NCBI GenBank assembly: GCA_035691665.1
Contig: DASSIS010000007.1
Location: forward strand, 1,549 to 65,548
Source of the DNA: Gammaproteobacteria bacterium
Lineage (GTDB): Bacteria > Pseudomonadota > Gammaproteobacteria > Natronospirales > REEB76
Length of the DNA stretch: 64,000 nucleotides
Direction of reading: 5' to 3'
Shown here: positions 3,940 through 59,160 of the stretch, piece by piece
Numbering within the stretch: the first letter of the stretch is position 1
Layout of the letters: the number at the start of each line of letters is the position of its first letter
Notes under the pieces: model-generated
Database searches by the model: none
What the model saw: the letters and a program-made list of their open reading frames with translations, nothing else
Told to the model about the DNA's origin: nothing
Translations under genes and position numbers: made by a program

Positions 3940-4469
3940 GTGGGTATCCGTGGGCGCAGGAAGATGCGTAGGGTGTAGACGCAGAGGATGCAGACCCCGA
4001 CGCCGATGGTGGCCTCCGAGAAACGCAGGAAGGCGTTGAGCAAGGGCGGGATCTGAGGTGACTGGCCGCTGACCACGGCGATGATCACCACCGTGGCGGC
4101 GGCGAGACGCGCGTATTCGAAGATGTCCAGCACGTAGCAGATGGCGAGGGTGAGACCGGCACAGAAAGCCATGCCCATCACGCCGAACCCGAACAGGGAC
4201 AGGTAGAGGGCGCACAGCAGCGCACCGATGGCGGTGCCTATGGTGCGCAGCAGCGAGGACTTCAGGGTCTCGCGGATGGTGCTCTGCAGGACCACGAGGC
4301 CGGAGATGGCGGACCAGATGCCCCCGATCTCGGCCGAGGCGCCGTGGAAGATGGCGGTGAAGCGGGAGCCCAGGTAGTAGCCCAGCAAGGTGATGAATAT
4401 GCCCTCGAGGCAGACGATGAGCGTCATGCGCCAGGGCTTGCGGAAGATCTCCCGCGGATGCCAGCCCAT
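3936..4469 (-). CDS. small FUSC/aromatic-acid-exporter-like integral membrane protein
   Basis: 177 aa from MGWHPREIF; 4-5 hydrophobic helices; the upstream part of the track ORF is Arg-rich junk overlapping the can gene. Confidence 0.45.
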   Translation of the reverse strand: MGWHPREIFRKPWRMTLIVCLEGIFITLLGYYLGSRFTAIFHGASAEIGGIWSAISGLVVLQSTIRETLKSSLLRTIGTAIGALLCALYLSLFGFGVMGMAFCAGLTLAICYVLDIFEYARLAAATVVIIAVVSGQSPQIPPLLNAFLRFSEATIGVGVCILCVYTLRIFLRPRIPT

Positions 4470-11622: not shown

Positions 11623-11662
11623 GGTCTTAAGCTCCTACCGTCGAATCAGAGAAGAACTGCGT

Positions 11663-11788
11663 CTGAAAATAGGCAATTTTGCTTACCGGCAAGGCGAAAA
11701 TGACCGAGCAAGCGGAGCGTACGCAGCAGTACGTGAGCATTGCGAGGGCGTTTTCAACGCCGCCGGGGAGCAAAAGGGCCATTTTCAG
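11663..11788 (+). repeat. ~126-nt near-palindromic dispersed element, copy A (aceE-aceF spacer)
   Basis: Ends CTGAAAAT...ATTTTCAG; core GGAGCGTAC-N6-GTACGTGAG; collinear with copies at 48486, 51673 and (inverted) 52878; right end contains the aceE stop codon. Confidence 0.85.
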
Positions 11789-42153: not shown

Positions 42154-43502
42154 AGGCGTGCATCTGCCGTCCAGTGCATGCGGAGCAAATCACCTGCAGC
42201 AATGGCCGTACCAGTCGCCGGCTCAAACATGGTAGTAGCCAATACGCCTACGGATACAGCGACATCAGCACCTGTTGTTGCATCTCTCAACTTGCCCATC
42301 GAGCCCGTCGCTTCAGAATAGAGCATCACAATAGGAGTAACTCCCTTCTCTACCTCAAAGTAGACGTCCATCTCGTTGATGCCATTGCCGCCACTGTAAC
42401 CGACAGGTACATGAGTGGTCTTCTGCCCTGGGAAAGAGGTCGTACCCGTCAAAACACCATAGGGCCACGAGCGCTCATACCAGCGTTTCACCCCCTGAAG
42501 TTCATCTATAAACCTCGGCGCCACGCAAACCTGTGCCAAGGTGTTAATACATACCTGCCAATCCGTCGCGTAGAAATCCTTCGTCGTTACCGCCCCGCAA
42601 TCCATCTCCAGGACGATCTCGATGCCGCTGCTGCAATCCCCCATGGCAGCGACGGCTGTCACCGCCGTCGTCGTGTTCGTGGGCAGGCTCACCGTAAAGC
42701 CCGTCGTGACGTTGGTTACGCTTGCGAAGTTGTCCTGCGCCGTCGCCTTGTTGATGGTCAGGAAAGCGTTGATGTTGCCGCCCGTGTCTTGGAAGCCCAG
42801 CACGCTGAAGAGCACGTTCCGGTTCTTGAGCGCGATGGCATCCCGGCTCTCGATCCAGCGGCGGAAGAAGACCTTGCCCGTCCCCGTGATGGTGCAGCCG
42901 GCGAGTTTGCAGGAATAAGCCGTCGCCGCGCCGGCGACCGTATAGGCCGTGTCCTGGGTGATGCTCCCGGCACTCACTGCCGTACCCGAAGCCCAGCATT
43001 GAACGAGGTCTACGGCCCCATAGGCCCGCGAGGTTCCCAGGGCCGGCGACGCGCTCGTGCCGGTCTGCGCCACCCGGCAACAGGGGTCCACCATGAAATT
43101 CTTGCCCGGCGGCGCCGGGTTCAAGAGGTTCCACTGCGTCCCGTCATACTTGAGGAAGGCCGGCACCCCGGCTTGCAGTTCACCTCCTGCGAGCGGCAGC
43201 CCGTTCCCATAGATGTTCGTCGTCGCGAGTCCGTCCGGCGCGAAGGTGGCCGGACCCGTGCTGTCCGTAGCGGGGTTGAGGATCTGCAGTAGACCCGGCA
43301 CCAACGCGCCGAAAGGCCGCCCGTTCGCCGCCGTCAGCGCATTCGCGCTGCCACCCGCCGTGGGCAGGCTCACCGCATAGGAAGCGAGATCCGCCATGAT
43401 GTCCCAGCCCGCCGTCTTCACCTGCGAGGGGCGCATCCCCGTCTTGAAGTAGTTGGCGAGATCGTTGTTGCTGGGTGTCGTGCTGTACTGGTCTATGGAC
43501 AT
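42150..43502 (-). CDS. phage tail fibre / receptor-binding protein
   Basis: 450 aa; N-terminus MSIDQYSTTPSNNDLANYFKTGMRP typical of tail-fibre N-termini; beta-rich; position before the lysis cassette. Confidence 0.65.
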   Translation of the reverse strand: MSIDQYSTTPSNNDLANYFKTGMRPSQVKTAGWDIMADLASYAVSLPTAGGSANALTAANGRPFGALVPGLLQILNPATDSTGPATFAPDGLATTNIYGNGLPLAGGELQAGVPAFLKYDGTQWNLLNPAPPGKNFMVDPCCRVAQTGTSASPALGTSRAYGAVDLVQCWASGTAVSAGSITQDTAYTVAGAATAYSCKLAGCTITGTGKVFFRRWIESRDAIALKNRNVLFSVLGFQDTGGNINAFLTINKATAQDNFASVTNVTTGFTVSLPTNTTTAVTAVAAMGDCSSGIEIVLEMDCGAVTTKDFYATDWQVCINTLAQVCVAPRFIDELQGVKRWYERSWPYGVLTGTTSFPGQKTTHVPVGYSGGNGINEMDVYFEVEKGVTPIVMLYSEATGSMGKLRDATTGADVAVSVGVLATTMFEPATGTAIAAGDLLRMHWTADARL

Positions 43503-43571
43503 CTGCTATCCCCAAAAACGAAGACCCCGCCGGTTGGCGGGGTCGGTAGAGCCTGTATCCAAGTACGCCCG

Positions 43572-44156
43572 TCAGGAGGGAACCTTGTCGAAACCCTCAT
43601 ACCACAAGGTCATGTTGTCATGATCCCCGTAATGGAAGCCGGCTCCGTCTTTGGCATACCACGCCTTCCACTTTTCGATGATGGCTTGCTGCACGTCGAC
43701 AGGAGCGACGAAGAGCGAATCGCGCGATTCCCATACGCCGAACATGTTCACTTGATCACCACTGCCAAACAGCAGCCAATATTCGCGGTTCTTGTCCAGT
43801 TTCAGCTGCTTCAGTGTCGCGGCGGACCCGGCCTTGAACTCGAACCCGGTGATGTAATAGAGGCTGCGCAGCGCCCAGATCACATGCAGGCTGTCCTGGT
43901 TCTTGTTCCTGTCTTGATTCGGCACATGCGCGATGGAGACAGTATGCAGTTGCTTCACCAGCAGCCCCGCCGCATCGGCACCGTGCTCAGCGAAGCACTG
44001 TAGGATGGGTCTCTGGTCGAAATTGTCGTTCTTCCAGTAACCCAGCTCCTTCACCTTGGCCGCCATCTCCTCGTTCGTGCAGGCCTCTGCTCTTGCGGGC
44101 AGGCTCAGCGTCGCGACGCATAGTGCGAGATAGGCGATTGCGATTCCCTGTTTCAT
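43572..44156 (-). CDS. secreted hypothetical protein (candidate immunity/inhibitor partner)
   Basis: Signal peptide MKQGIAIAYLALCVATLSLPARA/EA; lower GC; immediately downstream (2-nt gap) of the 221-aa hydrolase-like gene. Confidence 0.5.
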   Translation of the reverse strand: MKQGIAIAYLALCVATLSLPARAEACTNEEMAAKVKELGYWKNDNFDQRPILQCFAEHGADAAGLLVKQLHTVSIAHVPNQDRNKNQDSLHVIWALRSLYYITGFEFKAGSAATLKQLKLDKNREYWLLFGSGDQVNMFGVWESRDSLFVAPVDVQQAIIEKWKAWYAKDGAGFHYGDHDNMTLWYEGFDKVPS

Positions 44157-44157
44157 C

Positions 44158-44823
44158 TCAGTTGTCCGCTTTGTAGAAGTCGATATAGGTATTGCTGCCC
44201 TTGGGCACGTCGCCCCCGCCGGTGTTCATGAACGGCCCGAAACTCCTGACCAGTTCCGTATTCCCCCAGCTTGAGGGGGGTGTCTGGAGCCCGTCACCGC
44301 CTTCCTGTCGGATGAGGAAATGGTTGGTCCCGGACGGCGGCTTCAGCTGTTGCGCCGCCTGCGCCGCATCCACGGAGTTGCCCCACACCATCCTCTCCAC
44401 CCCGTTACTGAGATCAGGAACGCTTTCACGCACCTTGGGGTTGACCAATCTTACTCCCGCCATCCAAGCCCGAGCGGTCTTGAGTTGCTGCGCCGAATCC
44501 GGGTTCCAGTTTTCGGCGCGATAGACCCCCTTGTCATCAGCCTGTGCCGTGAGCTGCGGATAGATACCGGCGGTTTCCCCATAGATCGTCCGCTGCTGGT
44601 GTATCAGGTTGGGGTCGGGCGGTATCTGCGCAGCAGGCCCGGATGGATGAGCGGAGACCGGCGGCAGATTGCCCTCCGTGACCATGCCCGGAGCCGGCGT
44701 CACCGGTGGAAGGCCTTGCAATAGAGCACCCGCCAAGCCCGGCGGTGCCGGATTGGGCGGCCGACCCAGCAGGTCCGCGGCCAGGCCTTGGGTGAAGACT
44801 CCGCTTCCATTGGGATAAGCCAT
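44158..44823 (-). CDS. phage protein: shared N-terminal module + Pro-rich linker + possible SleB-like cell-wall hydrolase domain
   Basis: N-terminus aligns with the product of 53636..54310; C-terminal RTIYGETAG.. and ..AGVRLVNPKV weakly resemble the Hydrolase_2 signature. Confidence 0.5.
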   Translation of the reverse strand: MAYPNGSGVFTQGLAADLLGRPPNPAPPGLAGALLQGLPPVTPAPGMVTEGNLPPVSAHPSGPAAQIPPDPNLIHQQRTIYGETAGIYPQLTAQADDKGVYRAENWNPDSAQQLKTARAWMAGVRLVNPKVRESVPDLSNGVERMVWGNSVDAAQAAQQLKPPSGTNHFLIRQEGGDGLQTPPSSWGNTELVRSFGPFMNTGGGDVPKGSNTYIDFYKADN

Positions 44824-44849
44824 GTCCGTTTCCTTCTCGTTCAGATGGA

Positions 44850-45698
44850 TCAGTAGTCGGGCTCGTCTATCGGCATCGTCGTCGCATCCCAGTTGCCGGC
44901 CGGCTGCAGCGTGTTCAGCGTCGGCAGACTGCTGCTGGAATAGAGCGGCATCTGGTTGTACTGGTTGTAGAGGTTCATGCCCATCGAAGCGGCATTCATC
45001 GCGTTACCCAGCGGATTGCTGAAATAGGGGTTCGTCGTCTGCATGCCGGGCTGCACGCCGCCCAGGAAGCTCTCGTATTGCTGCAGCTGTTGTACCGGCA
45101 GCATCTGGTAGTAGTTGTACTTCTGCTGGTTCGCATCGATGTTCTGCTGCGCCAGGTCCTGCACCTGCTTGCCCACCCCTTCTGCGGCCGTGAGCCCGTT
45201 CATGCGCGTGTCATAGAGGTTTTGCGCCTGGTTCCCGGCCGCGAGCGCGTCCTGCATGTCCTGCTGATAGGCGTTGCCGTAGAGCCCCGTCGCCAGGTTG
45301 TCGAGCTGCTGCCCCCGCAGCGCCTGCGAGGCATCCACGTTCCGGCCCGTCCCGCCGAACTCCGAGGCGAGCTGCCCCTGTGTCGCACCCGCTGCCTGCT
45401 TGAAAGTGGCATCGAGATAGGGGTTCGATCCGCCCGCGTCATTGAGCAGGGTGGTGTCGAAGCCCTGTGCTGCGTCGAGCGCCGGCGTGCCGTTCATCCC
45501 CAGCGTCGAGATCGCCCCCATGGCCTGCTGCTGCGGCTGCGAGAAACCCGCCACCAGGGGGCCGGAATAATACTGGGGCTGGTAGCTCAAGAGCTTGTTC
45601 GCCTGCCCCAGCGCCGTCGAGATGTAGGGCAGCATGTAAGACGCTGGCATCTGCGTCGTCGTGGTGCTGCCCGAGGGAGAAGACCCGCCTAGGCTCAT
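44850..45698 (-). CDS. Gln/Asn-rich phage protein (internal virion/ejection-protein-like)
   Basis: 282 aa low-complexity Q/N/G-rich; position between tail hub-like and fibre genes. Confidence 0.4.
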   Translation of the reverse strand: MSLGGSSPSGSTTTTQMPASYMLPYISTALGQANKLLSYQPQYYSGPLVAGFSQPQQQAMGAISTLGMNGTPALDAAQGFDTTLLNDAGGSNPYLDATFKQAAGATQGQLASEFGGTGRNVDASQALRGQQLDNLATGLYGNAYQQDMQDALAAGNQAQNLYDTRMNGLTAAEGVGKQVQDLAQQNIDANQQKYNYYQMLPVQQLQQYESFLGGVQPGMQTTNPYFSNPLGNAMNAASMGMNLYNQYNQMPLYSSSSLPTLNTLQPAGNWDATTMPIDEPDY

Positions 45699-46225
45699 GG
45701 CTGCACCCTTCCCCGCGGCAACGCCACCGGCATCGGCCTGGGCCGGATGATCGGTGGACTTGGCGCATAGGTGTAAGGATTGTAGGCCGGCACCGCCGCG
45801 AGCTGCGCCAACGTGTTGACCTGGCCGTTATAGCTGCCGCCCGTCGGCGCCTGGGCCAGGCCGTTGGCCATCGCGTTGTAGGGCCCGCCACCCTGTGCCA
45901 GGGGTGTATAGGTGAATGCCGGATTGGGCAGCATGGGGTTCACCCGTCCCGCCGCTGCTGGCAGCCCCGTCGGCGTGGCCGTCCCACCCCAGCGCTGTGT
46001 CTCAAGCGGGTTCACCCCGTTGTTGGGGATGTTGCCGTTGATGAGGCCGGAACCGAAGGGGTTCGTCATGTTGGCGCCGACGTTGGAACCGCTGTGGCCC
46101 AACAGGTTCAGCGGATCGGACATGTTCGCGAGCCCGGCGCCGTAGTGGATGCCGGAGAGGCTGTTCAAGTCCGAATATTGTCCGCCGCTCGAGGCCGCAC
46201 TCGTGATCGCGCTGCCCATGCTCAT
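45695..46225 (-). CDS. Gly/Asn/Pro-rich phage protein
   Basis: 176 aa low complexity; translationally coupled to both neighbours. Confidence 0.4.
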   Translation of the reverse strand: MSMGSAITSAASSGGQYSDLNSLSGIHYGAGLANMSDPLNLLGHSGSNVGANMTNPFGSGLINGNIPNNGVNPLETQRWGGTATPTGLPAAAGRVNPMLPNPAFTYTPLAQGGGPYNAMANGLAQAPTGGSYNGQVNTLAQLAAVPAYNPYTYAPSPPIIRPRPMPVALPRGRVQP

Positions 46226-46605
46226 AGTTTTCTCCTCATGATGGTCGCCATCTCCTCGTAATCGGGATACACCCGCCCCCAGCCCCGCCGCCCCTGCAAC
46301 CGCATCTCGTCGCAGCCGAGGGCCTTCGCCCAGGCTTCGATGGCGCCGAGGTCCGCCTTATGCGACTGCAAGTCTTCACCACCGCAGAGCACCAGCATGC
46401 AAAGCCGTACACCGGGGTAGGTCTGGATCTGTGTCACCACCGCGAGCGCCCAGGGCACCACCCAAAGCTGCATCCGCTCGGCGAGGAGCTGCTGCTGTAT
46501 ATCTGCCAGCCCCCACTCCCTCTGCCGTGCGAGGGCCTTCTCCAGGCAGCCGCTGACTCGCGGCCACAGGGCGGCCACGTCCCAATGAGGTACCTGGAAG
46601 ATCAT
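46222..46605 (-). CDS. hypothetical phage protein
   Basis: 127 aa, coupled (4-nt overlaps) on both sides; no motif recognised. Confidence 0.4.
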   Translation of the reverse strand: MIFQVPHWDVAALWPRVSGCLEKALARQREWGLADIQQQLLAERMQLWVVPWALAVVTQIQTYPGVRLCMLVLCGGEDLQSHKADLGAIEAWAKALGCDEMRLQGRRGWGRVYPDYEEMATIMRRKL

Positions 46606-46928
46606 CGGACGATCAGGTAGTCGAAGTTCAGGTCCGGCTGTGCCACCGCCGCATGCGTGAGCGTGATGCTCCCGCCGTTCGCGGGTACCGAAACCGGGTC
46701 CGCCCAGAGTCCTGTCACCGTGGCCGCATGGGCCGTGGTCGGGAAGAGGAAGACCTTGCAGCCACGGGTGATGTGGTTGTCCGAGAGGGTGGTCACGGTC
46801 CCGTTGTCGGTCAGCGTCACACTTCCCAGGCTGTTGAGCGAGCCGACCAAAAGGCGATTGATGAGCGTCGCCATCTTCGCCGTCGGGTCATAGGGCGGGG
46901 TCGTCCTGAGCGGTGGCAATTTACTCAT
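46602..46928 (-). CDS. hypothetical phage tail-associated protein
   Basis: MSKLPPLRTTPPYDPTAKMATLINRL..; start at 46928 (ATGA overlap with the upstream gene); the longer track ORF start was rejected. Confidence 0.45.
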   Translation of the reverse strand: MSKLPPLRTTPPYDPTAKMATLINRLLVGSLNSLGSVTLTDNGTVTTLSDNHITRGCKVFLFPTTAHAATVTGLWADPVSVPANGGSITLTHAAVAQPDLNFDYLIVR

Positions 46929-48463
46929 GCCTCGCCTGCCGCCGTCCCATACAGGTCTATGCCTGTAGCGACCCCGAACCCGCCGTTGGCGCCGCCCGGG
47001 ATGATCACCCGCGCTCGCACATAGCGGCCTGTGGCCCTGAGGTCGCAGCGACCCGTCCGTGGGTTCTGGGCCGCGGCGGCGCTCACCGTATAGGTTTCGT
47101 TCTCCAGGTTCCGGGTCAGGAGCTGCACCGTCGGTGCCAGGACATAATTCCCCGCCGTCACCACCGGCCGCATGCCATCTATATAAGTGAGCCCGCCGGG
47201 GTTGGGCGAGCCTTCCGTGCTGTCGATCACCGCCGGGTCCAGGGGATTGCCCGTCAGCGTCCCGAAGGTGTTGCCCCCGTCGAAGGCTTGGAGCTGCAAG
47301 TCCCCACCCTGCCAATAGGGGTTGTCCAGGGACGGCGTGATGAGATCCAGGTCCGTGTTCACGTTATCGAGTGTGTCCAGGGTGTAACCGAAGCTCCGGG
47401 ATCCGAACACCCGGCTCACCGACTGGGAAGCCGGCGCGAACCGGTTCTCCGCGTAGTTGTAGGCGACCTGCCGGTCCGGGATGCCCGTGCTGTTACCCGC
47501 GCTGCAATAGCACCAATAGATGAGCTTGTTGATGGGATCGAGTGCGCCCACCACCCGGTCCGCGTAGGTGAGCGACACGTCGTTCAGGAAGGTCGTGTCG
47601 CACTTCCCATGGCCGATCTGCTGCACCTGGAAGCCATCCGTCATGCAGAAGCCGTCCGCCGCGATGAAATAGCTGAGGTTCCCGAGCTGCACCGGCGCGT
47701 TGGGGAAGAAGGCCCCGCGCTGCTTCTCGTAGGTGCTGAAGTCGAAGATCGCGTCGCCTCCTATATAGGTGGCCCGGGTGATGCCCCGCTGCTGGAAGAT
47801 GAGCCCGTACTCGTAGCCGTTGGCGATCTCCGTCACCGGCCCGTATACCGCGTCCAGGAACTGCTGCCCCGCCTGGTTCTCCTGGTCCGTCAGCGTCGAG
47901 AAGCCCCAATAGGTCGGGTTCCCGATGCCGCACCACTGCACCCGGTTCGGCACGTTGCCGTTGATGCCGTCTTCCGTGGCGCCGAGCATCACGAACTGGT
48001 TGAGGGTGCCGATGCATCCCGCTTTCGGCGGCGCGCCGGCGAGTGCCGCGAAGCCCGCCCCGCCCACCGGCATGGACTGCACCGCATCCGCGAAGTCCGT
48101 GGCCAGCACCAGGTTCCCGAAGCTCGGGCTCGAGAACTCCGTGAATTTCCAGTACTGCCCGTCCGCCGCCGTGTAAGGGCTCCCGCCCCCGGCCGAGAGG
48201 TTCGCGAAAGCCGTGCCGGTGTACTCCAGGAGCTGCGTCCCCGTCCCGGCGTAGATGTGCACGTTCCCGTCCGCATCCGCCATGGAAGTCGCGCCCTGCA
48301 CCCGCGCCGGCGCCGTCACCCCGAGAGAGGAGAACCCCAGCGCCGGTTGATAAGCCCCGTTCACCCACAGCACGTTCGAGGCATATGGCGAGCCTGGATT
48401 ATTAATTTCTGGTAAATCAGGTAACCACTCGCCGAATTTCAGTGCTGCTAGAAGTTTCGCCAT
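46925..48463 (-). CDS. phage tail hub / head-completion-like beta-propeller protein (P22 gp10-like position)
   Basis: 512 aa with repeated beta-strand blocks (..VHIYAGTGTQLLEY.., ..FGNLVLATDF.., ..FVMLGATEDG..); size and position. Confidence 0.4.
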   Translation of the reverse strand: MAKLLAALKFGEWLPDLPEINNPGSPYASNVLWVNGAYQPALGFSSLGVTAPARVQGATSMADADGNVHIYAGTGTQLLEYTGTAFANLSAGGGSPYTAADGQYWKFTEFSSPSFGNLVLATDFADAVQSMPVGGAGFAALAGAPPKAGCIGTLNQFVMLGATEDGINGNVPNRVQWCGIGNPTYWGFSTLTDQENQAGQQFLDAVYGPVTEIANGYEYGLIFQQRGITRATYIGGDAIFDFSTYEKQRGAFFPNAPVQLGNLSYFIAADGFCMTDGFQVQQIGHGKCDTTFLNDVSLTYADRVVGALDPINKLIYWCYCSAGNSTGIPDRQVAYNYAENRFAPASQSVSRVFGSRSFGYTLDTLDNVNTDLDLITPSLDNPYWQGGDLQLQAFDGGNTFGTLTGNPLDPAVIDSTEGSPNPGGLTYIDGMRPVVTAGNYVLAPTVQLLTRNLENETYTVSAAAAQNPRTGRCDLRATGRYVRARVIIPGGANGGFGVATGIDLYGTAAGEA

Positions 48464-48485
48464 AGCTTTGTTTATTCCCTAAACC

Positions 48486-48613
48486 CTAAAAATTAGAGAT
48501 TTTGATTCCCAGCGAGGCAAAAATGCCCGAGCAACCCGGAGCGTACTTTTGATGTACGTGAGGATTGCGAGGGCGTTTTTAACGCTGCTGGGGAGCAAAA
48601 GATCAATTTTTAG
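48486..48613 (+). repeat. near-palindromic dispersed element, copy B
   Basis: CTAAAAAT...ATTTTTAG ends; core GGAGCGTAC-ttttgat-GTACGTGAG; nearly collinear with copy A. Confidence 0.85.
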
Positions 48614-48795
48614 GGCCTGGGTTGCCGTGTTCAGGTGCATCCGGTAGCCATTCCCCGAACCTTAGTGTCGTTAAGAGTTTCGCCATGTCGCTATTGTTTG
48701 TGTCGGAAGCGATTCAGTCGCCGAGATGTCGCATTTCCCCAAGGCTCAGCTATGCTTCGCCGCGAGAGGGATATCCATGCCAAGGAGTGAGGGCG

Positions 48796-49086
48796 ATGGG
48801 GGCTTTAGTCATATCCTGCGTGAGTCGTAACGACTCACCGCATATACATACCCGTATAGAAGGTATCGGCGGCCTCTGCCCCGACACCGGCAAGCGTTGG
48901 TACCTGCCGGCGGAGGAAGCCATCGCCGGCATCCTCAACAAGACCCATGCGTTCCAGGTCGTCATCGGCAGCCGCCATGCGGACGTCGTCGTCGAACGCC
49001 ATCCTGAAGGTCGCCTCTACCTCAAGACCACCGTCGACGGCCCCCTGGAAAACAACCTGCTCCTGCGTCCCCAGTGCCCGATTTGA
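48796..49086 (+). CDS. DUF3892 domain protein (opposite-strand moron)
   Basis: HIHTRIEGIGGLCPDTGKRWYLPAEEAIAGIL..FQVVIG..ADVVV; start set at ATG 48796 behind AAGGAG. Confidence 0.55.
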   Translation: MGALVISCVSRNDSPHIHTRIEGIGGLCPDTGKRWYLPAEEAIAGILNKTHAFQVVIGSRHADVVVERHPEGRLYLKTTVDGPLENNLLLRPQCPI

Positions 49087-49180
49087 GCGCTTAGCCTTTC
49101 TCGTCATGACGTACAGGGACGTACTAATGCCGCGGGAGGCAGGATGCCGGGAGCGGCGCCCGCGTAAGCGGGTATCCAGT

Positions 49181-49798
49181 CTAAATATGAGGTTTCACCC
49201 AACCGACGCCCGTCTGATTGATGTTCTTCTCGTTCAGGTTCGCCAGAGCTTCCTTTTCCAGCTGCGTATATAAGGTGTACTGCTCCGGGTCGCGGATATA
49301 GCGCCCGTAGAGTTGCCGCGTCGCCCGGGTCCGGATCAACTCCTCCGCCGAGCCGAGCCAGGCATTCGTATCCGAATCGTTCACCAGGGGTTGGGGGCTA
49401 AGGATCGCCGTCCCCTTCACCTGCACCGGCAACCCGCCCTGGGGCGGTGGGAAGAGCCGGATCTGCCCGTTCCAGAAGGAATACTCCGTCGGATAGCCGG
49501 ACCAGAAGCCGTTGCCCCAGTCGATCTGGTCCAGATACTGCTCCGTCCGCGCCGTCAGCCGGTAGGTGTAGTTCCCGATGGTCGAGAGCACGTCCAGTAC
49601 CGCTGCGAAGTTCGTCGGCAAGATGTAATACCGCTGCCCCTGCACCGTCGTGAGTGGAGCCATCGAGGCCTCGTTGAACCAGAAGGCCTTGTTCCCGTAG
49701 AAGGTGATGGCGTTGTTGATCTCCCGCTTGATCTCGTCCGAGAGGTCCGAGCGCGCGAGCTCATCCGCGATGGCGGATTGCATATCTGAAAAAGCCAT
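49181..49798 (-). CDS. phage head-tail adaptor / tail tubular A-like protein
   Basis: 205 aa; size and position upstream of the tail hub-like gene; no diagnostic motif. Confidence 0.35.
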   Translation of the reverse strand: MAFSDMQSAIADELARSDLSDEIKREINNAITFYGNKAFWFNEASMAPLTTVQGQRYYILPTNFAAVLDVLSTIGNYTYRLTARTEQYLDQIDWGNGFWSGYPTEYSFWNGQIRLFPPPQGGLPVQVKGTAILSPQPLVNDSDTNAWLGSAEELIRTRATRQLYGRYIRDPEQYTLYTQLEKEALANLNEKNINQTGVGWVKPHI

Positions 49799-49877
49799 GC
49801 CTACTCCAAAAATTAACCCCAGGCTGTTACGACCCGGGGTTAATAGTTCTACCTATGAATGCCACTAGATATTAAAT

Positions 49878-50624
49878 CTAACGGTGAATGCGCTCTCGCT
49901 GACGAGCATAGATAGCACGCGCTTTATCAACACGTTTGCGCAGCTGTGGTAAACGCGTCTTTATAAATTTATCAGGCCATTTAGCATGTTGCGGTATTGC
50001 GACAAGTAGGTCTATTGAATCATCATGCCATGCCCGCAAACCAGGGCGACCAATTGCAATTCGTGCCGTACGTTCAGCCATCTTCAGTGAAGCGCGTATC
50101 TCATTCCCATCAAGGTACTGACGGGCCTGCCGCTCTGCTACATCTACCGCCAATGCAACCCGACGCGCGCTCCTCTGACCAAAGGCTCGCCGATCTAGTT
50201 GCCCATATACGTTTTCTGTCTGTGATTGAACTACATGAAGCGGGTGCATCACACGAATCGTTTTGTTTCCGACCTCAACGTTGGCGGCCCACCTCTCCAT
50301 TTCTTCTGCTCTTACCCCAAGCACTTGAGACATGAAGTCAATTTGGTAAGTTTCTCCATTGAGTTCTATAAGTACGTATGCCGAGTTCGCTGTGTGGTCG
50401 TCGATAGTAGCTATTTCCGTTCGACCACCCCACGCACGACCGGCTTCGCGCGCAAGTGACGCATCACCGAAGAAATCTATGTCTTCGCTGACAGCAGTAG
50501 ATATCGCGGCAAGGCCAAAAGCAACGGCATGAACGTTTAAAGCCTGCCCGCCTATCAGGATCGCACCCCGCGTGCTGACTGAACGATCAAGTAGGTCAAC
50601 AACCTCAGTCAGCCCAATAGGCAT
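49878..50624 (-). CDS. nucleotidyltransferase-fold protein (AbiEii/MenT/MNT-like toxin candidate)
   Basis: ILIGGQALNVHAVAFGL..STAVSEDIDFFGD resembles the GG..(n)..DxD minimal NTase motif; low GC; follows an XRE gene by 13 nt. Confidence 0.45.
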   Translation of the reverse strand: MPIGLTEVVDLLDRSVSTRGAILIGGQALNVHAVAFGLAAISTAVSEDIDFFGDASLAREAGRAWGGRTEIATIDDHTANSAYVLIELNGETYQIDFMSQVLGVRAEEMERWAANVEVGNKTIRVMHPLHVVQSQTENVYGQLDRRAFGQRSARRVALAVDVAERQARQYLDGNEIRASLKMAERTARIAIGRPGLRAWHDDSIDLLVAIPQHAKWPDKFIKTRLPQLRKRVDKARAIYARQRERIHR

Positions 50625-50637
50625 GTGCTATATCCGC

Positions 50638-50973
50638 TTAGCCGATTGATGGGACCCTTACCTTGACATTCCCTGGCACAAGAATAGCGTTGCGATTATG
50701 GGCCAACACTTCGGACGGTTCGTGTGAAACACCAATAGCAAGCTGGAGACCAAGCACGGCCAAGAGACTATTGAGCTTATGAAAGCTCAAGCCTTCTACT
50801 GCTTTATTCTTTTCCAGATCCACAAGCCTAGAGCGGCTAAGCCCAGCACGAGCAGCAACATCAGCTTGCCGCATCTTCAATGCCTGCCGACGTTCGCGCA
50901 CGAGCTTGCCTACTTCATAAATTGAAGATGCATAAATTACCGATTCAGCAGAGAGATTCATGACTGGCTCCAT
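50638..50973 (-). CDS. XRE-family HTH protein (antitoxin/repressor candidate)
   Basis: VGKLVRERRQALKMRQADVAARAGLSRSRLVDLEKNK classic HTH_3. Confidence 0.8.
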   Translation of the reverse strand: MEPVMNLSAESVIYASSIYEVGKLVRERRQALKMRQADVAARAGLSRSRLVDLEKNKAVEGLSFHKLNSLLAVLGLQLAIGVSHEPSEVLAHNRNAILVPGNVKVRVPSIG

Positions 50974-51030
50974 TTTGTGGAGTGTGACCAGCTCAAAAAG
51001 ACTGTGTTTAGAGTAATGTAATTAGTAGTA

Positions 51031-51052
51031 AATGTCCAATATATTAGACATT
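51031..51052. promoter_or_regulatory. 22-bp palindrome upstream of the XRE gene (operator candidate)
   Basis: AATGTC-caatatatta-GACATT in the AT-rich 50974-51053 region. Confidence 0.4.
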
Positions 51053-51053
51053 A

Positions 51054-51087
51054 AAAAAGCAACCCCCCTTGCCACTGTTAGGGGTTG
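51054..51087 (-). terminator. intrinsic terminator (minus strand)
   Basis: Minus strand reads CAACCCC-(14 nt)-GGGGTTG followed by CTTTTTT. Confidence 0.55.
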
Positions 51088-51134
51088 ATATATTACTACT
51101 GTAATTATTTACAGCCCCAGACTAAGAAGAGACA

Positions 51135-51166
51135 TTCGAGGGGCCCCTGCTTCGAGGCCCCTCGAA
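51135..51166 (-). terminator. strong hairpin after the decoration gene
   Basis: TTCGAGGGGCC-(10 nt)-GGCCCCTCGAA, perfect 11-bp stem 17 nt after the stop at 51183. Confidence 0.6.
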
Positions 51167-51182
51167 CAATTTCTCTATAGCT

Positions 51183-51644
51183 TCAAGCAAAGCTCGCATT
51201 ATCCACTTGGCACTCCACCGCCAAGCGCATCGTCCCGTTCTGCCACGTCGCAGGGTTCGCGGTGGCCTTGAACTGGATCACTGTCCCGCCCGCGTTGCCC
51301 CCGCTCGCATTGGGCGGGTTCACGAAGCCCGTGCTGGCCGTCACGTTGTTCGGCAGCACCACCCCCGTCTTGAGCTGCGCCGCCGTCACCGTGATGTATC
51401 GTCCCGCGTTCCCCGCGTCCCCCACCGTGCCCGTCAGGGTCGGCGCGGCGTTCACGTCCAGGGGATCCACGTCCAGGGTCACGTTCAGCACCTTGTAGCC
51501 GTTCGGCACCGTGACGAGCTGCACCACATCCCCGTTGGCCAGGGCCGTGGAGAGCGCCACGCTGCCGAACACCAGGAAGCTCGCCCCCCGCTCGTTGATG
51601 GGGATGGAGCCGCTCGAGACCTGAGAACTCGTATAAGTAGCCAT
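51183..51644 (-). CDS. capsid decoration/cement-like protein
   Basis: 153 aa beta-rich, directly downstream of the MCP; analogous in position and size to cement proteins of podoviruses. Confidence 0.5.
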   Translation of the reverse strand: MATYTSSQVSSGSIPINERGASFLVFGSVALSTALANGDVVQLVTVPNGYKVLNVTLDVDPLDVNAAPTLTGTVGDAGNAGRYITVTAAQLKTGVVLPNNVTASTGFVNPPNASGGNAGGTVIQFKATANPATWQNGTMRLAVECQVDNASFA

Positions 51645-51672
51645 ACTTCAAAACCTCTATGAATTGGTTGTT

Positions 51673-51801
51673 TTAAAAACGAGAGATTTTGTTCACTGGC
51701 TAGGCGCGGGCGTCCGAGGAGCCCGGAGCGTACTTTGGGTGTACGTGAGGACTCCGAGAGGCGCCCGCAACACCGCCAGGGGACAAAAGATCCGTTTTTA
51801 G
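51673..51801 (+). repeat. near-palindromic dispersed element, copy C (MCP-decoration spacer)
   Basis: TTAAAAACG...CGTTTTTAG ends; core GGAGCGTAC-tttgggt-GTACGTGAG; right end contains the MCP stop codon. Confidence 0.85.
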
Positions 51802-52850
51802 TGGGCGGCAGCGTAAGTAGAGATGACTTGAGTCCCAAAATCATTGGAGTTAAAGACTAGTTTCTTAACCCCAAATATGGAGCCCGCTGACACGCCCAAC
51901 ATGTTCCCGTAATCGAAGAGCTCCTCGGACCAGGTGAACTGATCCTTGCTCTCCTCCCGCCCGAAGGCCAGCGCCCCCGCTTGGGCCCCGGCGAACACCG
52001 CCCGGTAGGTGTTGGCGAGGGGCGCGCCCGCGTTCACGCAGGGGCTCACGCGGTAAGCCTTATGCAGGATCACCCCGTTGTACTCCCCGAGCGAACCCGT
52101 GAAGATCGGGTTGTCCGAGACCTCGCCGCCCGTCATGGCCGCCTTCTCGATGTCCAGCCACTGCCCTGCGCTCGTGGAGGTGCGCAGGTCCGTCACCTGC
52201 GAGGGGTGGATGAAGCACACGTACTTGTCCTCCCCCTTGATGCGGATCGGCCGGATCAGGTAGGGGTTGTTGAGGTAGGCCCGTTCCACCGCCGTATCGA
52301 TGAGCGAGAGCGTGAAGGTGTTGGTGTTGACCAGCGCCGCCTCGTTCGCCACACCCGTGGGCAGGATCGTGCGGGTCGGGGCCGTGGCCGCATTGTTCCC
52401 CGTGTAGCGGGTGTCGCCTTGCGCCGTGTTGCCGCAGAGCTGGTTGAAGAAGCAGAGGTCGAACCGGGCGGCCCACCAGTCCTGCAGGCCCATCCGGGCC
52501 TCCTCGCGCAGCTCGAAGGGCACCCGCTGCTGGGTCATGCGCCCACCCACGTTCACCGCATGCCGCAGCTGGTCGATCAGCAGCTTGTCCGCGTAGGTGG
52601 TGAGCGCCTCCTCCTGGCCCTCCAGCGTCCCGTCGCCCTGGATGCCGGCGCCCGCCAGCTGCGTGCGCAGCCCCACGTTCACCGTGTCGCCGGCGGATTT
52701 CTCCGCGTCGTCCAGCATGGTGATGACGTTGTTGCCGTCGTCCGAGATGAAGTTGCGGAACCAGGTCTGCTGGATCGCCTGCACCGCGAGTTTCTTCGCC
52801 CACAGCTTGACCGCAAGCGGATCGTTCACTGTAAAGTTTGTATTGGCCAC
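51798..52850 (-). CDS. major capsid protein, N4-gp56 family
   Basis: GTG start; MANTNFTVNDPLAVKLWAKKLAVQA..SAGDTVNVGLRTQLAGAGIQGDGTLEGQEEAL..LIDQLRHAV matches the N4-gp56-type MCP N-terminal pattern. Confidence 0.8.
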   Translation of the reverse strand: MANTNFTVNDPLAVKLWAKKLAVQAIQQTWFRNFISDDGNNVITMLDDAEKSAGDTVNVGLRTQLAGAGIQGDGTLEGQEEALTTYADKLLIDQLRHAVNVGGRMTQQRVPFELREEARMGLQDWWAARFDLCFFNQLCGNTAQGDTRYTGNNAATAPTRTILPTGVANEAALVNTNTFTLSLIDTAVERAYLNNPYLIRPIRIKGEDKYVCFIHPSQVTDLRTSTSAGQWLDIEKAAMTGGEVSDNPIFTGSLGEYNGVILHKAYRVSPCVNAGAPLANTYRAVFAGAQAGALAFGREESKDQFTWSEELFDYGNMLGVSAGSIFGVKKLVFNSNDFGTQVISTYAAAH

Positions 52851-52877
52851 GTATTGCTCCCGAAAGATTGCCAGTGG

Positions 52878-53003
52878 CTCGAATGGGTCTTTTGCCCTCT
52901 GGCGGCGTTGCAGGCTCCTTCGCAGTCCTCACGTACGACAAAAGTACGCTCCGGGTGCTCAGTCGCCCGCGCCTAGCCATAGGGACAAAATCCCCGATTC
53001 TTG
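52878..53003 (-). repeat. near-palindromic dispersed element, copy D (inverted orientation, MCP 5' leader)
   Basis: Plus strand reads CCTCACGTAC-gacaaaa-GTACGCTCC; reverse complement is collinear with copy C. Confidence 0.8.
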
Positions 53004-53123
53004 GCCGTGCTGAGAATAAAGATGCGGTGGAGACCGCTACTGACTAACTGACGGGTAGTTACCGGATGGCCTTTGACGGAAGGCTGTACCGAAGTTCGTC
53101 ACATGACGCCGTGACCGCGAAGA

Positions 53124-53230
53124 CAAAGAAGCCGCTCCGGTTTCCCTCAGCGGCTTTATCTGCCGGACACGCGAATCCAGCATAGGCATATTTTTCAGAA
53201 CATCACGCCGCCCGTCTAGCCCCTCCCCTG
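53124..53230. repeat. direct repeat DR1 (~107 nt)
   Basis: CAAAGAAGCCGCTCCGGTTTCCCTCAGCGGCTTT..GACACGCGAATCCAGCATAG..CATCACGCCGCCCG.CTAGCCCCTCCCCTG; about 90% matched by eye to 54321-54431. Confidence 0.85.
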
Positions 53231-53243
53231 CGGTGATGGGTCA

Positions 53244-53567
53244 TCAGACTTTAATCCGTCCCTTAGGTTGCAGGAGTTTCCGCTGGATGAAGCCGATTAA
53301 CTCGCCGATACCGCTGAAAAATATACCGTTCGCGAAGGCAACTATTGAAACAAGCTCAATGTAGTCGGCCAACGCAGCAGGGTGCGAATCATAAGGCAAC
53401 GCCATAAGACCGATGCTTGCCGGGCAAAGGAGAACAGCCCAGGCAGGTTCACTTTCCAAGCTGCCATGCGCCATCATCCAATAGACCGTACTCAAAGTGA
53501 GTGCGCCCAACACGAAGCCGATCGCGAAACAGATCAGCACTGGCTTGGGTATGTTACGTATCCCCAT
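53244..53567 (-). CDS. small 3-TM membrane protein (candidate immunity partner)
   Basis: 107 aa, three hydrophobic helices; low GC; downstream of the PPPDE-like gene. Confidence 0.5.
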   Translation of the reverse strand: MGIRNIPKPVLICFAIGFVLGALTLSTVYWMMAHGSLESEPAWAVLLCPASIGLMALPYDSHPAALADYIELVSIVAFANGIFFSGIGELIGFIQRKLLQPKGRIKV

Positions 53568-53635
53568 ATCCTCGGCGCTCCCTGATGCCTGATTCCATTA
53601 TTGCACAACAGGCTCACGCTGAATTCTGATGACTG

Positions 53636-54310
53636 TTATCGGGGATTCACAGATGATTGTTGCGTTGGATCATAGATGTTGTGCAAACCCTTGACGAAAT
53701 CGGCCGGAAACAGTGCCGACAACGAATGCGGTGTTTGCAATCCGGCGGCATTGAGCGCCCTTGCGCCAAACGTCACGCAATCCTTGAAGGGCAGATTGTA
53801 GATACCTGGACCGCTCTGGTTCAGCATGAACTGCCGGGCTTGATTTGCCTGCTCCGACGTCACGGGGATATTCACCTGATCCACCGGCTTCCGGTCCGCG
53901 GAGACCATGTCCACCTCCCCTGGCACAGCGCTACCGATCATATTGATCGCATTGAACTTGTTCGCGAGCGTTCCGGGTTCATGCCCCACCAGCGGTAGTG
54001 CGCCGAAGCCTGGGGCCGGATCAAAACCATAGAAGGGTCCACTGTTCACTGAAATCCCGATATGCCCAAATGGGTTGCCATCCTCGCCGTCGAAGTAAGC
54101 GGCCGTCAGATGGTCACCGCTCGCGGAGTCCGGTGGCTTCTGGTCTGGCGCGACTGCGGGCATGGACGGTATGGATGGTGACGTCACCGACGGCAATGGT
54201 GTCTGCAACAAGGAAGTTGCAAGACCCGGGGGAAAGAACACCGGCGGTTTCCCTAACAGCTCTTGCCCTAATCCACCAAAATAGCTCTGATTACCCACGC
54301 CACCTGCCAT
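53636..54310 (-). CDS. shared N-terminal module + Pro-rich linker + PPPDE/DeSI-like permuted papain-fold peptidase domain
   Basis: FGHIGISV..GPFYGF ... IYNLPFKDCVTFGARALNAAGLQTP parallels the DeSI pattern HTxxVV..FFFG ... [25 protein letters not shown] (His first, Cys second). Confidence 0.55.
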   Translation of the reverse strand: MAGGVGNQSYFGGLGQELLGKPPVFFPPGLATSLLQTPLPSVTSPSIPSMPAVAPDQKPPDSASGDHLTAAYFDGEDGNPFGHIGISVNSGPFYGFDPAPGFGALPLVGHEPGTLANKFNAINMIGSAVPGEVDMVSADRKPVDQVNIPVTSEQANQARQFMLNQSGPGIYNLPFKDCVTFGARALNAAGLQTPHSLSALFPADFVKGLHNIYDPTQQSSVNPR

Positions 54311-54320
54311 GTAGAACCTC

Positions 54321-54431
54321 CAAAGAAAATGCCGCTTCGGTTTCCCGCAGCGGCTTTAGATGCTGGACACGCGAATCCAGCATAGCGATATTTTTCAGGA
54401 CATCACGCCGCCCGACTAGCCCCTCCCCCTG
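54321..54431. repeat. direct repeat DR2 (~111 nt)
   Basis: Partner of DR1. On the minus strand it supplies a hairpin plus T-run, then GGAGG and the ATG of the 224-aa gene. Confidence 0.85.
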
Positions 54432-57405: not shown

Positions 57406-57513
57406 CTAGCGCCGCTTCCCGAATATCTTCTTCCAGGCTTTCTCGAACTCATCCGGGTGGGTGATGGAAGCGAGGTCTTTGGCACTCAGCTCCCCTTCTC
57501 CCGCCGCCCCTCC
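57406..57513 (-). pseudogene. remnant of a second scaffold-gene 3' end
   Basis: Hand translation GGAAGEGELSAKDLASITHPDEFEKAWKKIFGKRR* versus the intact scaffold C-terminus GGTAGDGEISAKDLAGITDPDEFEKAWKKVFGKRR* (58255-58362). Confidence 0.8.
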
Positions 57514-58136
57514 CTATCAGTCGCTACTGCAGACCGCAGGCGGTTCATCTCTCCCCGGCAGGCGGCCAGCACGATGCCGGGCTCGATGAGTGCGTCGATG
57601 ATGAAGTGCGCCGCGATGCAGGGCATGAGCAGCCGTCCTGAGGCGAGGTAGACCACCGCCAGCGCCGCGCCCAACACGCCGGTCACGAACGTCGCACCCA
57701 GTGTGGCTCGCAGGCTCTTGCCGAAGAGCCCCCAGATGCCGTGCGCGAGACCGAAGGTGAGGCCCGAGAGCAGTATCTGCACCGCCACGCTGGATCCCTG
57801 CCTCGCCAGGTGGTCCATCAACGCCCCGCGGAACACCGCTTCCTCGAGTATCCCGGCGAAGAGCGCCATGGGCAGCGCCAGGAGCTTGAGCATGGAGGGC
57901 CGGACCAGGTTTGCCCGTACCGAGGGCAGGTGCAGACTGGAAACGACGTAAGCCACCGTCACTGCCAAGGCCAGGAGCCACCCGAGGGCTGCACCGTGCC
58001 GCCCATCGGCGAAACCGATGTAAGCCATGAACTTCGCCGGGGATCCGAGGAAGCTCAACATCACGATCGCCCCTTCTGAGACCATGAACCCGGCCAGTAT
58101 CAGGGCGGCCTTCTTCTCCACGCTCATCTTCGCCAT
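57486..58136 (-). CDS. CPBP family intramembrane glutamic endopeptidase (Abi/CAAX-type, immunity-like)
   Basis: EEAVFRG, FGLAHG, AAHFIIDA motifs; 6 TM; its 3' end reads into the scaffold remnant in another frame. Confidence 0.8.
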   Translation of the reverse strand: MAKMSVEKKAALILAGFMVSEGAIVMLSFLGSPAKFMAYIGFADGRHGAALGWLLALAVTVAYVVSSLHLPSVRANLVRPSMLKLLALPMALFAGILEEAVFRGALMDHLARQGSSVAVQILLSGLTFGLAHGIWGLFGKSLRATLGATFVTGVLGAALAVVYLASGRLLMPCIAAHFIIDALIEPGIVLAACRGEMNRLRSAVATDREGRREKGS

Positions 58137-58254: not shown

Positions 58255-59160
58255 TTAGCGTCGCTTCCCAAACACCTTCTTCCAGGCCTTCTCGAACTCA
58301 TCCGGATCCGTGATCCCGGCCAAGTCTTTGGCGGAAATTTCGCCATCTCCTGCGGTACCCCCCTGGTTCAGCTTCGCCCCGGCCGCTTGTAGCCCCGCCG
58401 CGATCTTCGCCTGCGCCTCTTCGCTCCCGGTCGCCCGTTTGTTCTTTTGCGCGAACCCCCTTGCCTGGGCGTATTCCCATACCAGCTCCGCCGGATTCCG
58501 TCCCTGCTGCAGCGCGTTGTGGATGATCTCCGTCGTGTTCTGCCGCACGATGGCCGCCCGCTGCGCCGGGTCCGCATACCCTAAGCTTTGGAGCTCCCTG
58601 TCCCGCGCTTCTGCGGCGTAGCGGTAAGCCTCGGGATACTCCGGCTGGCTCTTGGCGAACTCCTGCTCCTGGGCCGTGGCCCAGTGAGCGGTCTGCTGCA
58701 CCGCCGCCCGTTGCTGGGCAGCCTGCTCCTGCTGCTGGCGCCATTGCTGTAGCTCGGCGGTCGTGGATTGTACGTTGCCGAGCACGTGGTTGATGTAGTC
58801 CAGGGGCTTGGTCTGCGGATCCGGCAGAGGCGCGGCCGCCTGGGCCGGGAACGGTTGCAGCCGCTGCGCGAGCTGCGCCTGCCACTCCCGGTAGGCCCTG
58901 AGCTCGTCCCTAAGCTGCTTCTTCTCCGCCCGCTCCTGCTGCAAGGCCTGTAGCGGCACGAACTTCTCCTGCTTGTTCGTTCTCTCTACTCCGGGTTCCG
59001 GTGCCTCCGCCTTCACCGGCTCTTTAGCCGCATCTGCGGCTGTTTCTGGCGTGGCTTCCGGCCGCTCCGGCAAGCCTTCGGAGAGCGCAGGACCCATCTC
59101 CTGACCTCTGCTCTCGAAGAACTTCGTCTCCGCTTCGTTCAACTGTGGCATCGCATTCAT
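58255..59160 (-). CDS. phage scaffolding protein
   Basis: 301 aa, Ala/Gln/Glu-rich helical; the product of an upstream-of-MCP head-module gene. Confidence 0.6.
   Translation of the reverse strand: MNAMPQLNEAETKFFESRGQEMGPALSEGLPERPEATPETAADAAKEPVKAEAPEPGVERTNKQEKFVPLQALQQERAEKKQLRDELRAYREWQAQLAQRLQPFPAQAAAPLPDPQTKPLDYINHVLGNVQSTTAELQQWRQQQEQAAQQRAAVQQTAHWATAQEQEFAKSQPEYPEAYRYAAEARDRELQSLGYADPAQRAAIVRQNTTEIIHNALQQGRNPAELVWEYAQARGFAQKNKRATGSEEAQAKIAAGLQAAGAKLNQGGTAGDGEISAKDLAGITDPDEFEKAWKKVFGKRR

Follow-up and report, generated by a model that had tools for sequence, protein, structure and literature searches.

ERIC-like palindromic repeats in the aceEF operon and around the capsid gene of a long-resident prophage in an uncultured gammaproteobacterium

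Enterobacterial repetitive intergenic consensus (ERIC) elements, also called intergenic repeat units (IRU), are single long imperfect palindromes of 127 bp with T-A termini that lie between the genes of operons, and reviews confine them to Enterobacteriaceae and Vibrionaceae (PMC10969869). The Correia or NEMIS elements of Neisseria are 100-155-bp, TA-flanked palindromic MITEs (miniature inverted-repeat transposable elements) that also occur in operons, are processed by RNase III and have promoter and terminator effects (PMC2229807, PMC10969869), and are found in Neisseria prophages (PMC11602168). Both the ERIC repeats of Yersinia and the Correia repeats change mRNA stability in an orientation-dependent manner (PMC2229807, PMC10969869). 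A survey of viral MITEs (vMITEs; Nadal-Molero et al. 2024) found cellular MITEs copied into prophages, with several copies in one phage, and the proposed direction of transfer is from host to virus during lysogeny (PMC11602168). The survey, the largest of MITEs, clustered elements at 95% identity, contains no cross-phylum bacterial cluster, and reports 97.4% of MITEs to be genus-specific (PMC11602168). Here we describe four imperfect palindromes of about 127 nt (126-128 nt), copies A to D, in a 64,000-nt stretch of contig DASSIS010000007.1 (assembly GCA_035691665.1, positions 1,549 to 65,548), referred to as the window. The host is an uncultured "Gammaproteobacteria bacterium" known from a metagenome-assembled genome (MAG), and the window has a GC content of 64% and a negative GC skew throughout. 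Copy A is located in the aceE-aceF operon of the host, and copies B, C, and D are located in a prophage, where C and D flank the gene of the major capsid protein (MCP) (Table 1).

The copies agree with ERIC in length, in forming a single long imperfect palindrome, in their position from stop codon to start codon within operons that would be transcribed as units, and in their T-A termini. They differ from it in distribution: the host is outside the families in which ERIC is known, and relatives of the element occur in at least seven phyla. The resemblance to Correia elements lies in size, palindromic form, and position in operons, and, for copies B and C, in TA flanks. The Correia consensus includes CAAGGCG ... 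GTAC-AAATA-GTAC, and its terminal repeats (TATAGTGGATT...; 26-bp TATAGTGGATTAA...) are unlike the termini of the copies. REP and BIME sequences, like the copies, are extragenic palindromes of strand-specific hairpin structure; they are placed in 3' untranslated regions (UTRs), stabilize the upstream mRNA, and are recognized in single-stranded form. However, REP sequences are 20-40 nt long, have a GTAG head, and are linked to a RAYT gene, whereas the copies are 127 nt long, differ in sequence, and have no linked gene that we could find. The attC sites of integrons are imperfect palindromes of 57-141 nt in which one folded strand and the extrahelical bases matter rather than the arm sequence; the copies lack R and L boxes (GTTRRRY), an integrase, and a cassette context, and the similarity is one of analogy only. 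The copies share several properties with MITEs: they are shorter than 300 bp, have no coding capacity, end in terminal inverted repeats, and are dispersed and polymorphic for presence at the aceEF, MCP 5', and MCP 3' sites. The vMITE survey includes neither this family, nor its invariant core, nor capsid-flanking hot spots (PMC11602168). The window has no Rfam match at the gathering thresholds, and four other loci with the element have no match on the element at E <= 1.

Each copy folds as a single long hairpin, with energies of -48 to -67 kcal/mol. The entire element is an inverted repeat with the termini T(A/G)AAAA...TTTT(T/C)A, or T(A/G)AAAAT...ATTTT(T/C)A in the fuller form. The hairpin includes a GGCG/CGCC helix with AA and CAA bulges on its sides, tandem-GA loops of the type CGAG/CGAG, and an apical core of the form C-GGAGCGTAC-N6-7-GTACGTGAG-N-A. 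The strand containing GGAGCGTAC, referred to as the core strand, folds with energies of -63.4 (A), -61.9 (B), -67.5 (C), and -60.6 kcal/mol (D), with z-scores of -5.3 to -9.7, and the complementary strand of each copy folds 10-15 kcal/mol more weakly. The core pattern was found three times in the window, where 0.03 occurrences are expected (copy A contains a variant with a 6-nt loop); therefore, the copies are not chance sequences. Copies A and B are 79% identical to each other, C and D are 76% identical, and the identities across these pairs are 64-73%. The GC contents of C and D are 0.58-0.60, and those of A and B are 0.45-0.54, in agreement with the separate, GC-richer subfamily of C and D proposed in the initial annotation.

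The placement of the copies relative to the neighboring genes was also as first described. The TGA stop codon of aceE (11787-11789, minus strand) falls within the terminus of copy A, and the TAA stop codon of the MCP gene (51798-51800) is inside the last bases of copy C, which ends 29 nt before the ATG of the next gene (51644). Thus, copy C is positioned in the same manner as the copy in aceE-aceF. Copy B ends 23 nt ahead of the start of the 512-aa gene (48463), in a spacer that is divergent towards a DUF3892 gene. Copy D, in inverted orientation, is about 28 nt upstream of the GTG start codon of the MCP gene (52850).

Table 1. Repeat copies and associated genes in the window. The strand given for a copy is that of its core; R1 is a covariance model built from 61 clusters of elements from other taxa, with the window excluded.
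Feature	Coordinates	Strand	Description
Copy A	11664-11790	+	aceE-aceF spacer; R1 43.6 bits, E 5e-8
Copy B	48487-48614	+	A/B subfamily; TA-flanked; R1 48.9 bits
Copy C	51674-51801	+	C/D subfamily; from MCP stop to 153-aa gene, antisense to both; R1 46.3 bits
Copy D	~52876-53003	-	C/D subfamily; degenerate termini; MCP leader, sense to MCP; R1 44 bits
MCP gene	51798..52850	-	N4-gp56 family; GTG start; phrog_334, E 4e-84; PF13252
153-aa gene	51183..51644	-	putative decoration/head protein by position; follows MCP in all relatives
512-aa virion structural protein gene	46925..48463	-	phrog_3287, E 4e-63; downstream of copy B
aceE	11785-14454	-	host operon with copy A
aceF	10351-11622	-	host operon with copy A; Pfam domains of AceF

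The order of motifs in the copies is that of ERIC. An ERIC copy of E. coli (L186; L-numbers denote the loci and contigs compared) reads AAGGCG-19 nt-GGAGCTTAC-ATAA-GTAAGTGAC-16 nt-AAACGCAGC, and copy A reads AAGGCG-17 nt-GGAGCGTAC-N6-GTACGTGAG-18 nt-CAACGCCGC. In the apical stem, the two differ by G>T and C>A, which compensate each other, whereas the arms and termini are unrelated in sequence, the spacings differ by 2 nt, and the C-G pair that closes the core of the copies is A.C in ERIC. The conserved central inverted repeat of ERIC, GTGAATCCCCAGGAGCTTACATAAGTAAGTGACTGGGGTGAGCG, shares the motif order, and the ERIC copy scores 8 bits with model R1 and 18.1 bits with model R2, a more tolerant replacement for R1. 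The R1 score is uninformative because the model is too rigid: L176, a genuine member of the family with a compensatory apical stem, scores 7 bits. In 40 kb of E. coli DNA, the ERIC copy was the top R2 match, with strand and register both correct, and with an E value of 0.052 under a rough calibration, and the next background match scored 9.4 bits. The element is therefore ERIC-like, and on these alignments its membership in ERIC appears borderline and unproven.

The origin of the copies was addressed by comparison with relatives of the prophage, with MCPs 92-95% identical, drawn from IMG/VR, NCBI, ENA, and Logan. At each position, the site is empty in six to eight close relatives. In L121-L127, only 10-16 nt with a ribosome-binding site separate the MCP stop codon from the next ATG, and there is no element, whereas an element occupies exactly that spacer in the window, in L172, and in L174/L176. 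A comparison of filled with empty alleles at this stop codon is compatible with a TA duplication. The site upstream of the MCP gene is empty in six relatives and filled in the window, L124, L191, and L295; L124 is identical to a Gammaproteobacteria MAG contig (L004). The complete phage L173 carries no copy of the element. In the host operon, L187 and L188 have an empty aceE-aceF spacer of 11-12 nt (TGA-GGAGAT-AAGCC-GTG), and the window and L189/L190 have a filled one. An additional segment of about 40 nt (11623-11663) separates copy A from the aceF start and contains the GGAG ribosome-binding site of aceF. This segment, with its new ribosome-binding site, is missing from the empty alleles and is common to L189/L190; it may have come with the insertion or from a second event. 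No orthologue of copy B was detected in L172 or L174, by a core scan combined with R1 that also missed the known post-MCP copy of L174.

The prophage has resided in this lineage for a long time. In assembly GCA_037025005.1 (contig JBAIIG010000235.1, which holds L172 and L187), the MCP gene and aceF are on one contig, on the same strand and 33 kb apart; in the window the distance is 40 kb. Between the two genomes, the synonymous divergence (dS) is 0.55 for MCP and 0.49-0.66 for AceE/AceF. The ratio of non-synonymous to synonymous divergence (dN/dS) of MCP relative to L172 is 0.08, and that of the 153-aa gene is 0.15. Because the dS of MCP equals that of AceE/AceF and its dN/dS is low, the prophage cluster has diverged together with its host under purifying selection. 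Upstream of the MCP leader there is a gene of the beta-lactamase family, with no portal or terminase gene, whereas the bona fide relatives L173 and L174 have terminase, portal, and scaffold genes upstream of MCP. Judged by its gene content and divergence, the prophage is a truncated SU10/N4-gp56-type phage, vertically inherited and long-resident. The region of about 42000-54400 is seen as a phage-derived structural cluster under selection, with dN/dS of 0.08-0.15. The AceF protein of the window is 100% identical to that encoded on a 91.6-kb contig of a Gammaproteobacteria MAG in NCBI. Exact-sequence searches with the MCP, the 512-aa protein, and AceE returned no record.

The distribution of the element is cellular. 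The family signature GATTTTG..GGCNAGGCG..core is present in at least 120 metagenome contigs with GC contents of 43-70%; among 120 of these, two adjoin an MCP homologue and none adjoin aceEF. A scan of genome contigs for the exact core gave at least 120 loci in at least seven phyla, both being lower bounds among the matches listed, versus only nine IMG/VR contigs, two of which are of this phage lineage. One related copy is located between surE and an Smr gene. We consider it very probable that copies A-D are insertions of a non-autonomous, MITE-like and ERIC-like repeat of about 127 bp, which is a cellular and not a phage sequence. Of the two scenarios raised in the initial annotation, the colonization of a long-resident prophage by a host element is borne out by the empty sites in prophage relatives and aceEF, the non-phage distribution, the synteny, and the dS values; the acquisition of a phage sequence by aceEF in a single event is excluded by the related prophages with empty sites together with the cellular distribution. 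That a metabolic operon and a capsid gene share the element had been called unusual. Such sharing is usual for dispersed repeats of the MITE/ERIC type, and colonization of prophages by host MITEs is a known kind of event, documented for phages and prophages (PMC11602168).

Several observations weigh against this reading. The copy number of the element in this lineage may be modest, because a model search of 63 kb of related host DNA (L187-L189) found only the aceEF copy, and the prophage looks enriched, as about 4.5 kb of its structural module contain three copies. Around 120 loci, no protein family was recurrent over a distance of about 4 kb, and no transposase or autonomous partner was found there; trans-acting transposases encoded elsewhere were outside this search. 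The commonest neighbor clusters of the 120 loci encode ABC transporters, Fe-S proteins, and the like. To our knowledge, no function or transposase has been established for either MITEs or ERIC after 35 years. The flanks of copies B, C, and that of L124 are compatible with a target duplication of TA, but copy A is flanked by TG...CA and the copy of L015 by TC...GA; owing to the A-rich termini, the exact boundary of the element is ambiguous. In addition, copy C has changed far less than neutral sites have, and the orientation of the copies is site-specific, neither of which is expected for inert insertions. As a separate observation, contig L191 stops 45 nt past the MCP stop codon, inside the element (4210-4254), which represents an assembly break at the repeat; therefore, short-read MAGs probably under-count such elements.

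At least four distinct types of element are found in the spacer behind the MCP stop codon, all antisense to MCP. The first is the type of copy C, present in the window and L172, and the second is a variant of the same family with a swapped apical stem, GGAGTGCAC..GTGCATGAC, in L174 and L176. The third is another variant of this family, in L301, and the fourth (L128, L191, L192/L193) belongs to a second family, one often seen in genomes of the Rhodanobacteraceae type. At the site upstream of MCP, both occupant types are sense to MCP. The MCP 3' spacer is an insertion hot spot that has been hit repeatedly and independently by different subfamilies. Copy C and its orthologue in L172 differ at three of 128 positions, whereas the flanking 60-nt windows are 78-90% identical and the third codon positions 71% identical between these genomes. 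Since the downstream spacer is common to both, the two copies represent one ancestral insertion. The other pairs of copies differ more: A and L189 are 90% identical and C and L174 74%, and copy D is 89%, 73%, and 68% identical to its orthologues in L295, L191, and L124, respectively. On these alignments, selection, or conversion towards a stable consensus, must act on copy C, and its near-identity in two diverged genomes suggests that it is now under constraint.

It is possible, although on balance we do not favor it, that the copies, C above all, have been co-opted as a cis-regulatory module and are selected as a structure of the capsid 3' and 5' UTRs that serves as a processing site, stabilizer, or attenuator and sets the ratio of MCP to its neighbors; an origin as MITEs is compatible with such a role. 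The near-identity of copy C in spite of a dS of 0.55, the uniform antisense orientation of the 3' occupants and the sense orientation of both 5' types, and the similarity of copy D to that of L295 argue for it. However, L121 to L127 and L173 have no element after MCP, and the element-free L121 and L123 have the highest MCP identity, 95%. The copy of L174 at the same site is only 74% identical to C, the divergence of copy D from that of L124 resembles neutral decay, and gene conversion towards a stable family consensus could explain the conservation.

In the favored reading, the copies landed in the few short, TA-containing spacers at gene boundaries, between stop codon and ribosome-binding site, of an old prophage. 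If the insertions affect the capsid genes, they would be transcribed together with the late structural genes, starting from a promoter-like leader that is conserved. Each copy would form an mRNA hairpin of at least 48 kcal/mol, which may act as a barrier to 3' exonucleases, as a substrate of RNase III or RNase E, or as a leaky terminator, with partial termination at the U5 tracts of B and C, and the hairpins would thereby uncouple the expression of MCP from that of its neighbors. By eye, the U tract 3' of the hairpin on the mRNA strand is U5 in B and C and U4 in A, and D has none; a terminator scan flagged only an inner piece of copy B (48540-48526) and no whole element. Because the MCP gene and the next gene are 10-16 nt apart in relatives without copy C, a 128-nt hairpin must at least uncouple the two. 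The MCP mRNA would hold D in the sense orientation (-60.6 kcal/mol) and C as the antisense of its better-folding strand (-57.9 versus -67.5 kcal/mol), and the two hairpins would not be equivalent. By analogy with ERIC in Yersinia and Correia in Neisseria (PMC2229807, PMC10969869), an effect on the capsid mRNA, as barrier, RNase target, or attenuator, is plausible, as is the differential stabilization or processing of the MCP transcript foreseen in the initial annotation.

A 103-nt repeat, 89% identical between its copies, is located upstream of MCP (53126-53228) and upstream of a 224-aa gene (54326-54428). It is kept in related prophages (L174 9780-9900; L121 ~800-1000) and has the form CAGGGGGAGGGGCTAGAC..CTGAAAAAT..GCTGGAT, after which come a hairpin and a T-run. 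In its layout, the repeat is suggestive of a late promoter whose leader is terminated, perhaps with Q/qut-like antitermination. A sigma-70 promoter scan of 48.3-53.4 kb found none.

The exact core of the element extends well beyond this lineage. It was found in Gammaproteobacteria (Rhodanobacteraceae, Nevskiales), Alphaproteobacteria (Mesorhizobium, Brucella/Ochrobactrum, Devosia, Rickettsiales, Holosporales), and Bacillota (Paenibacillus, a Bacillus, Clostridia), and also in Desulfobacterales, Nitrospirota, Myxococcota, Binatota, and Chlorobiota; in 596 Gb, about 35 matches would arise by chance. All 122 extracted elements, which form 64 clusters at 60% identity, have the core at the tip of a long hairpin. 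Because the set was picked by the exact core, the invariance of the core is by construction, and the independent positions are only -1, which is C in 100% of the clusters, and +2, which is A in 97%; both are outside the search pattern. The arms differ in sequence yet stay paired: the pair -2/+1 is GC in 32, CG in 19, and AU in 6 sequences, and the covariation score is 0.286 versus 0.114 in shuffles, with none of 500 shuffles reaching 0.286. All natural variants of the apical helix are compensatory (CGTGC/GCACG, TGCAC/GTGCA, TTGAC/GTCAA, CATAC/GTATG). Ungapped counts of arm pairing were not used, since about half of the families pair in another register, and fold energies were taken instead. 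With scores of 43.6-48.9 bits in R1, the copies of the window belong to this cross-phylum hairpin superfamily. A literature search with the core as a string returned only primers, and the superfamily, strand-asymmetric and with an invariant core, is apparently undescribed so far. The elements are nearly always intergenic, and their flanking genes are antisense on both sides in 38 cases versus sense on both sides in 21, according to crude gene calls. Tandem arrays of two to three elements with a spacing of 120-175 nt are present in L012 (3441-3625), L013 (5876-6171), L080 (3338-3536), and L002 (6198-6531).

A fold like that of the sarcin-ricin loop of 23S rRNA was considered for the core and rejected. 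The 3' half-core GUACGUGAGGAC resembles GUACGAGAGGAC of that loop, but position +1 covaries with -2 in the long hairpin, and only about one third of the clusters have a G there.

The superfamily is asymmetric between its strands. When the core is masked, the core strand is the one on which the arms fold better in 47 of 64 clusters with RNA parameters (p 2e-4) and in 56 of 64 with DNA parameters (p 8e-9), and in 61 of 64 the arms of this strand are rich in purines. The purine-rich arms reflect tandem G-A loops (GGA/GA, CGAG/CGAG, CAGATG/CAGATG) and A-rich bulges. The better folding and purine richness of the core strand indicate that one folded strand, either RNA or single-stranded DNA, is under selection. 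Mutation bias was rejected as a cause of the asymmetry, which follows the orientation of the core and not the local strand; moreover, a C>T bias predicts the opposite asymmetry on the strand that holds A, B, and C.

The folded strand could be DNA, read by a recombinase or transposase in the manner of attC, IS200/IS605, or REP, with any effect on RNA incidental. The larger number of clusters in which the core strand folds better with DNA than with RNA parameters, the purine-rich arms, the conservation of bulged bases (A at +2, the AA and CAA bulges), and the antisense orientation of most copies to transcription would fit such an element, but neither an HUH or tyrosine recombinase nor any other protein family is linked to the 120 loci within about 4 kb, and structured RNA is just as rich in tandem G-A loops and bulges. 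We regard this alternative as unlikely. A broader proposal, which we put forward tentatively, is that the elements form a widespread, undescribed superfamily of which ERIC is a branch, that its apical module is kept constant over at least seven phyla because one folded strand, RNA or single-stranded DNA, is recognized by a conserved factor, and that insertion in a fixed orientation right behind the stop codon of a highly expressed gene is selected, making copy C a working part of capsid expression. In such a superfamily, the apical module may consist of the C-G pair that closes it, an internal tandem-GA loop (GGA/GA), a helix of 5-6 bp with compensatory changes only, and a conserved unpaired A. 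That the copies are native regulatory hairpins of the phage, late-operon terminators or processing sites of which one moved to aceEF, would suit the location of three of the four window copies in the prophage and the one to three copies per 9-13 kb of this lineage, but it is highly improbable in view of the related phages with empty sites, the complete phage L173 without any copy, the 118 of 120 metagenome copies that are not beside genes of this phage, and the rarity of the exact core in IMG/VR.

Among the genes around the copies, the MCP assignment of the initial annotation held, and two other labels are less specific than first given: "decoration" for the 153-aa gene rests on position, as the gene has no family match, and the "tail hub-like" 512-aa protein matches only the "virion structural protein" family phrog_3287. 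The 153-aa gene is separated from the adaptor gene by a cargo slot of variable content (window 49878-50973; L174 11700-13090; L172 3974-4441), located behind a strong terminator-like hairpin (51133-51168). In the window, the slot is occupied by an island of low GC content that encodes an XRE regulator and a 248-aa protein without family match; in L174 it contains small membrane-like open reading frames, and in L172 a cNMP-binding gene. The DUF3892 gene (48796-49086, plus strand) is on the opposite strand between the adaptor gene and copy B, and L174 has a gene for a different, small secreted-looking protein at this position. The window contains further repeats. A direct repeat at 9674-9903 and 11382-11611 (84% identical) represents the N-terminal lipoyl domains that the E3 (595 aa) and E2 (AceF) genes encode. 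Stretches that are 62-80% identical (23103-23839, 25753-26489, 30456-31100, with an inverted match at 61253-61327) are shared by three to four large paralogous genes (~700-860 aa), and a 109-nt direct repeat (75% identical) is located at 57407-57515 and 58256-58364.

The window thus provides a natural example of the invasion of a prophage by host MITEs, in which the comparison with empty sites settles the direction of transfer. A cross-phylum family would matter because MITEs are regarded as genus-specific and ERIC as enterobacterial. Paenibacillus, Mesorhizobium, Nitrospira, and Desulfobacterales have the core in common letter for letter, along with non-canonical features that are specific to one strand, which suggests that the core has a specific molecular partner; this partner could be found by pull-down with a 30-nt hairpin in cultivable carriers. 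If the proposed superfamily is real, it would provide a sequence basis for the working of ERIC-PCR primers far outside the enterobacteria.

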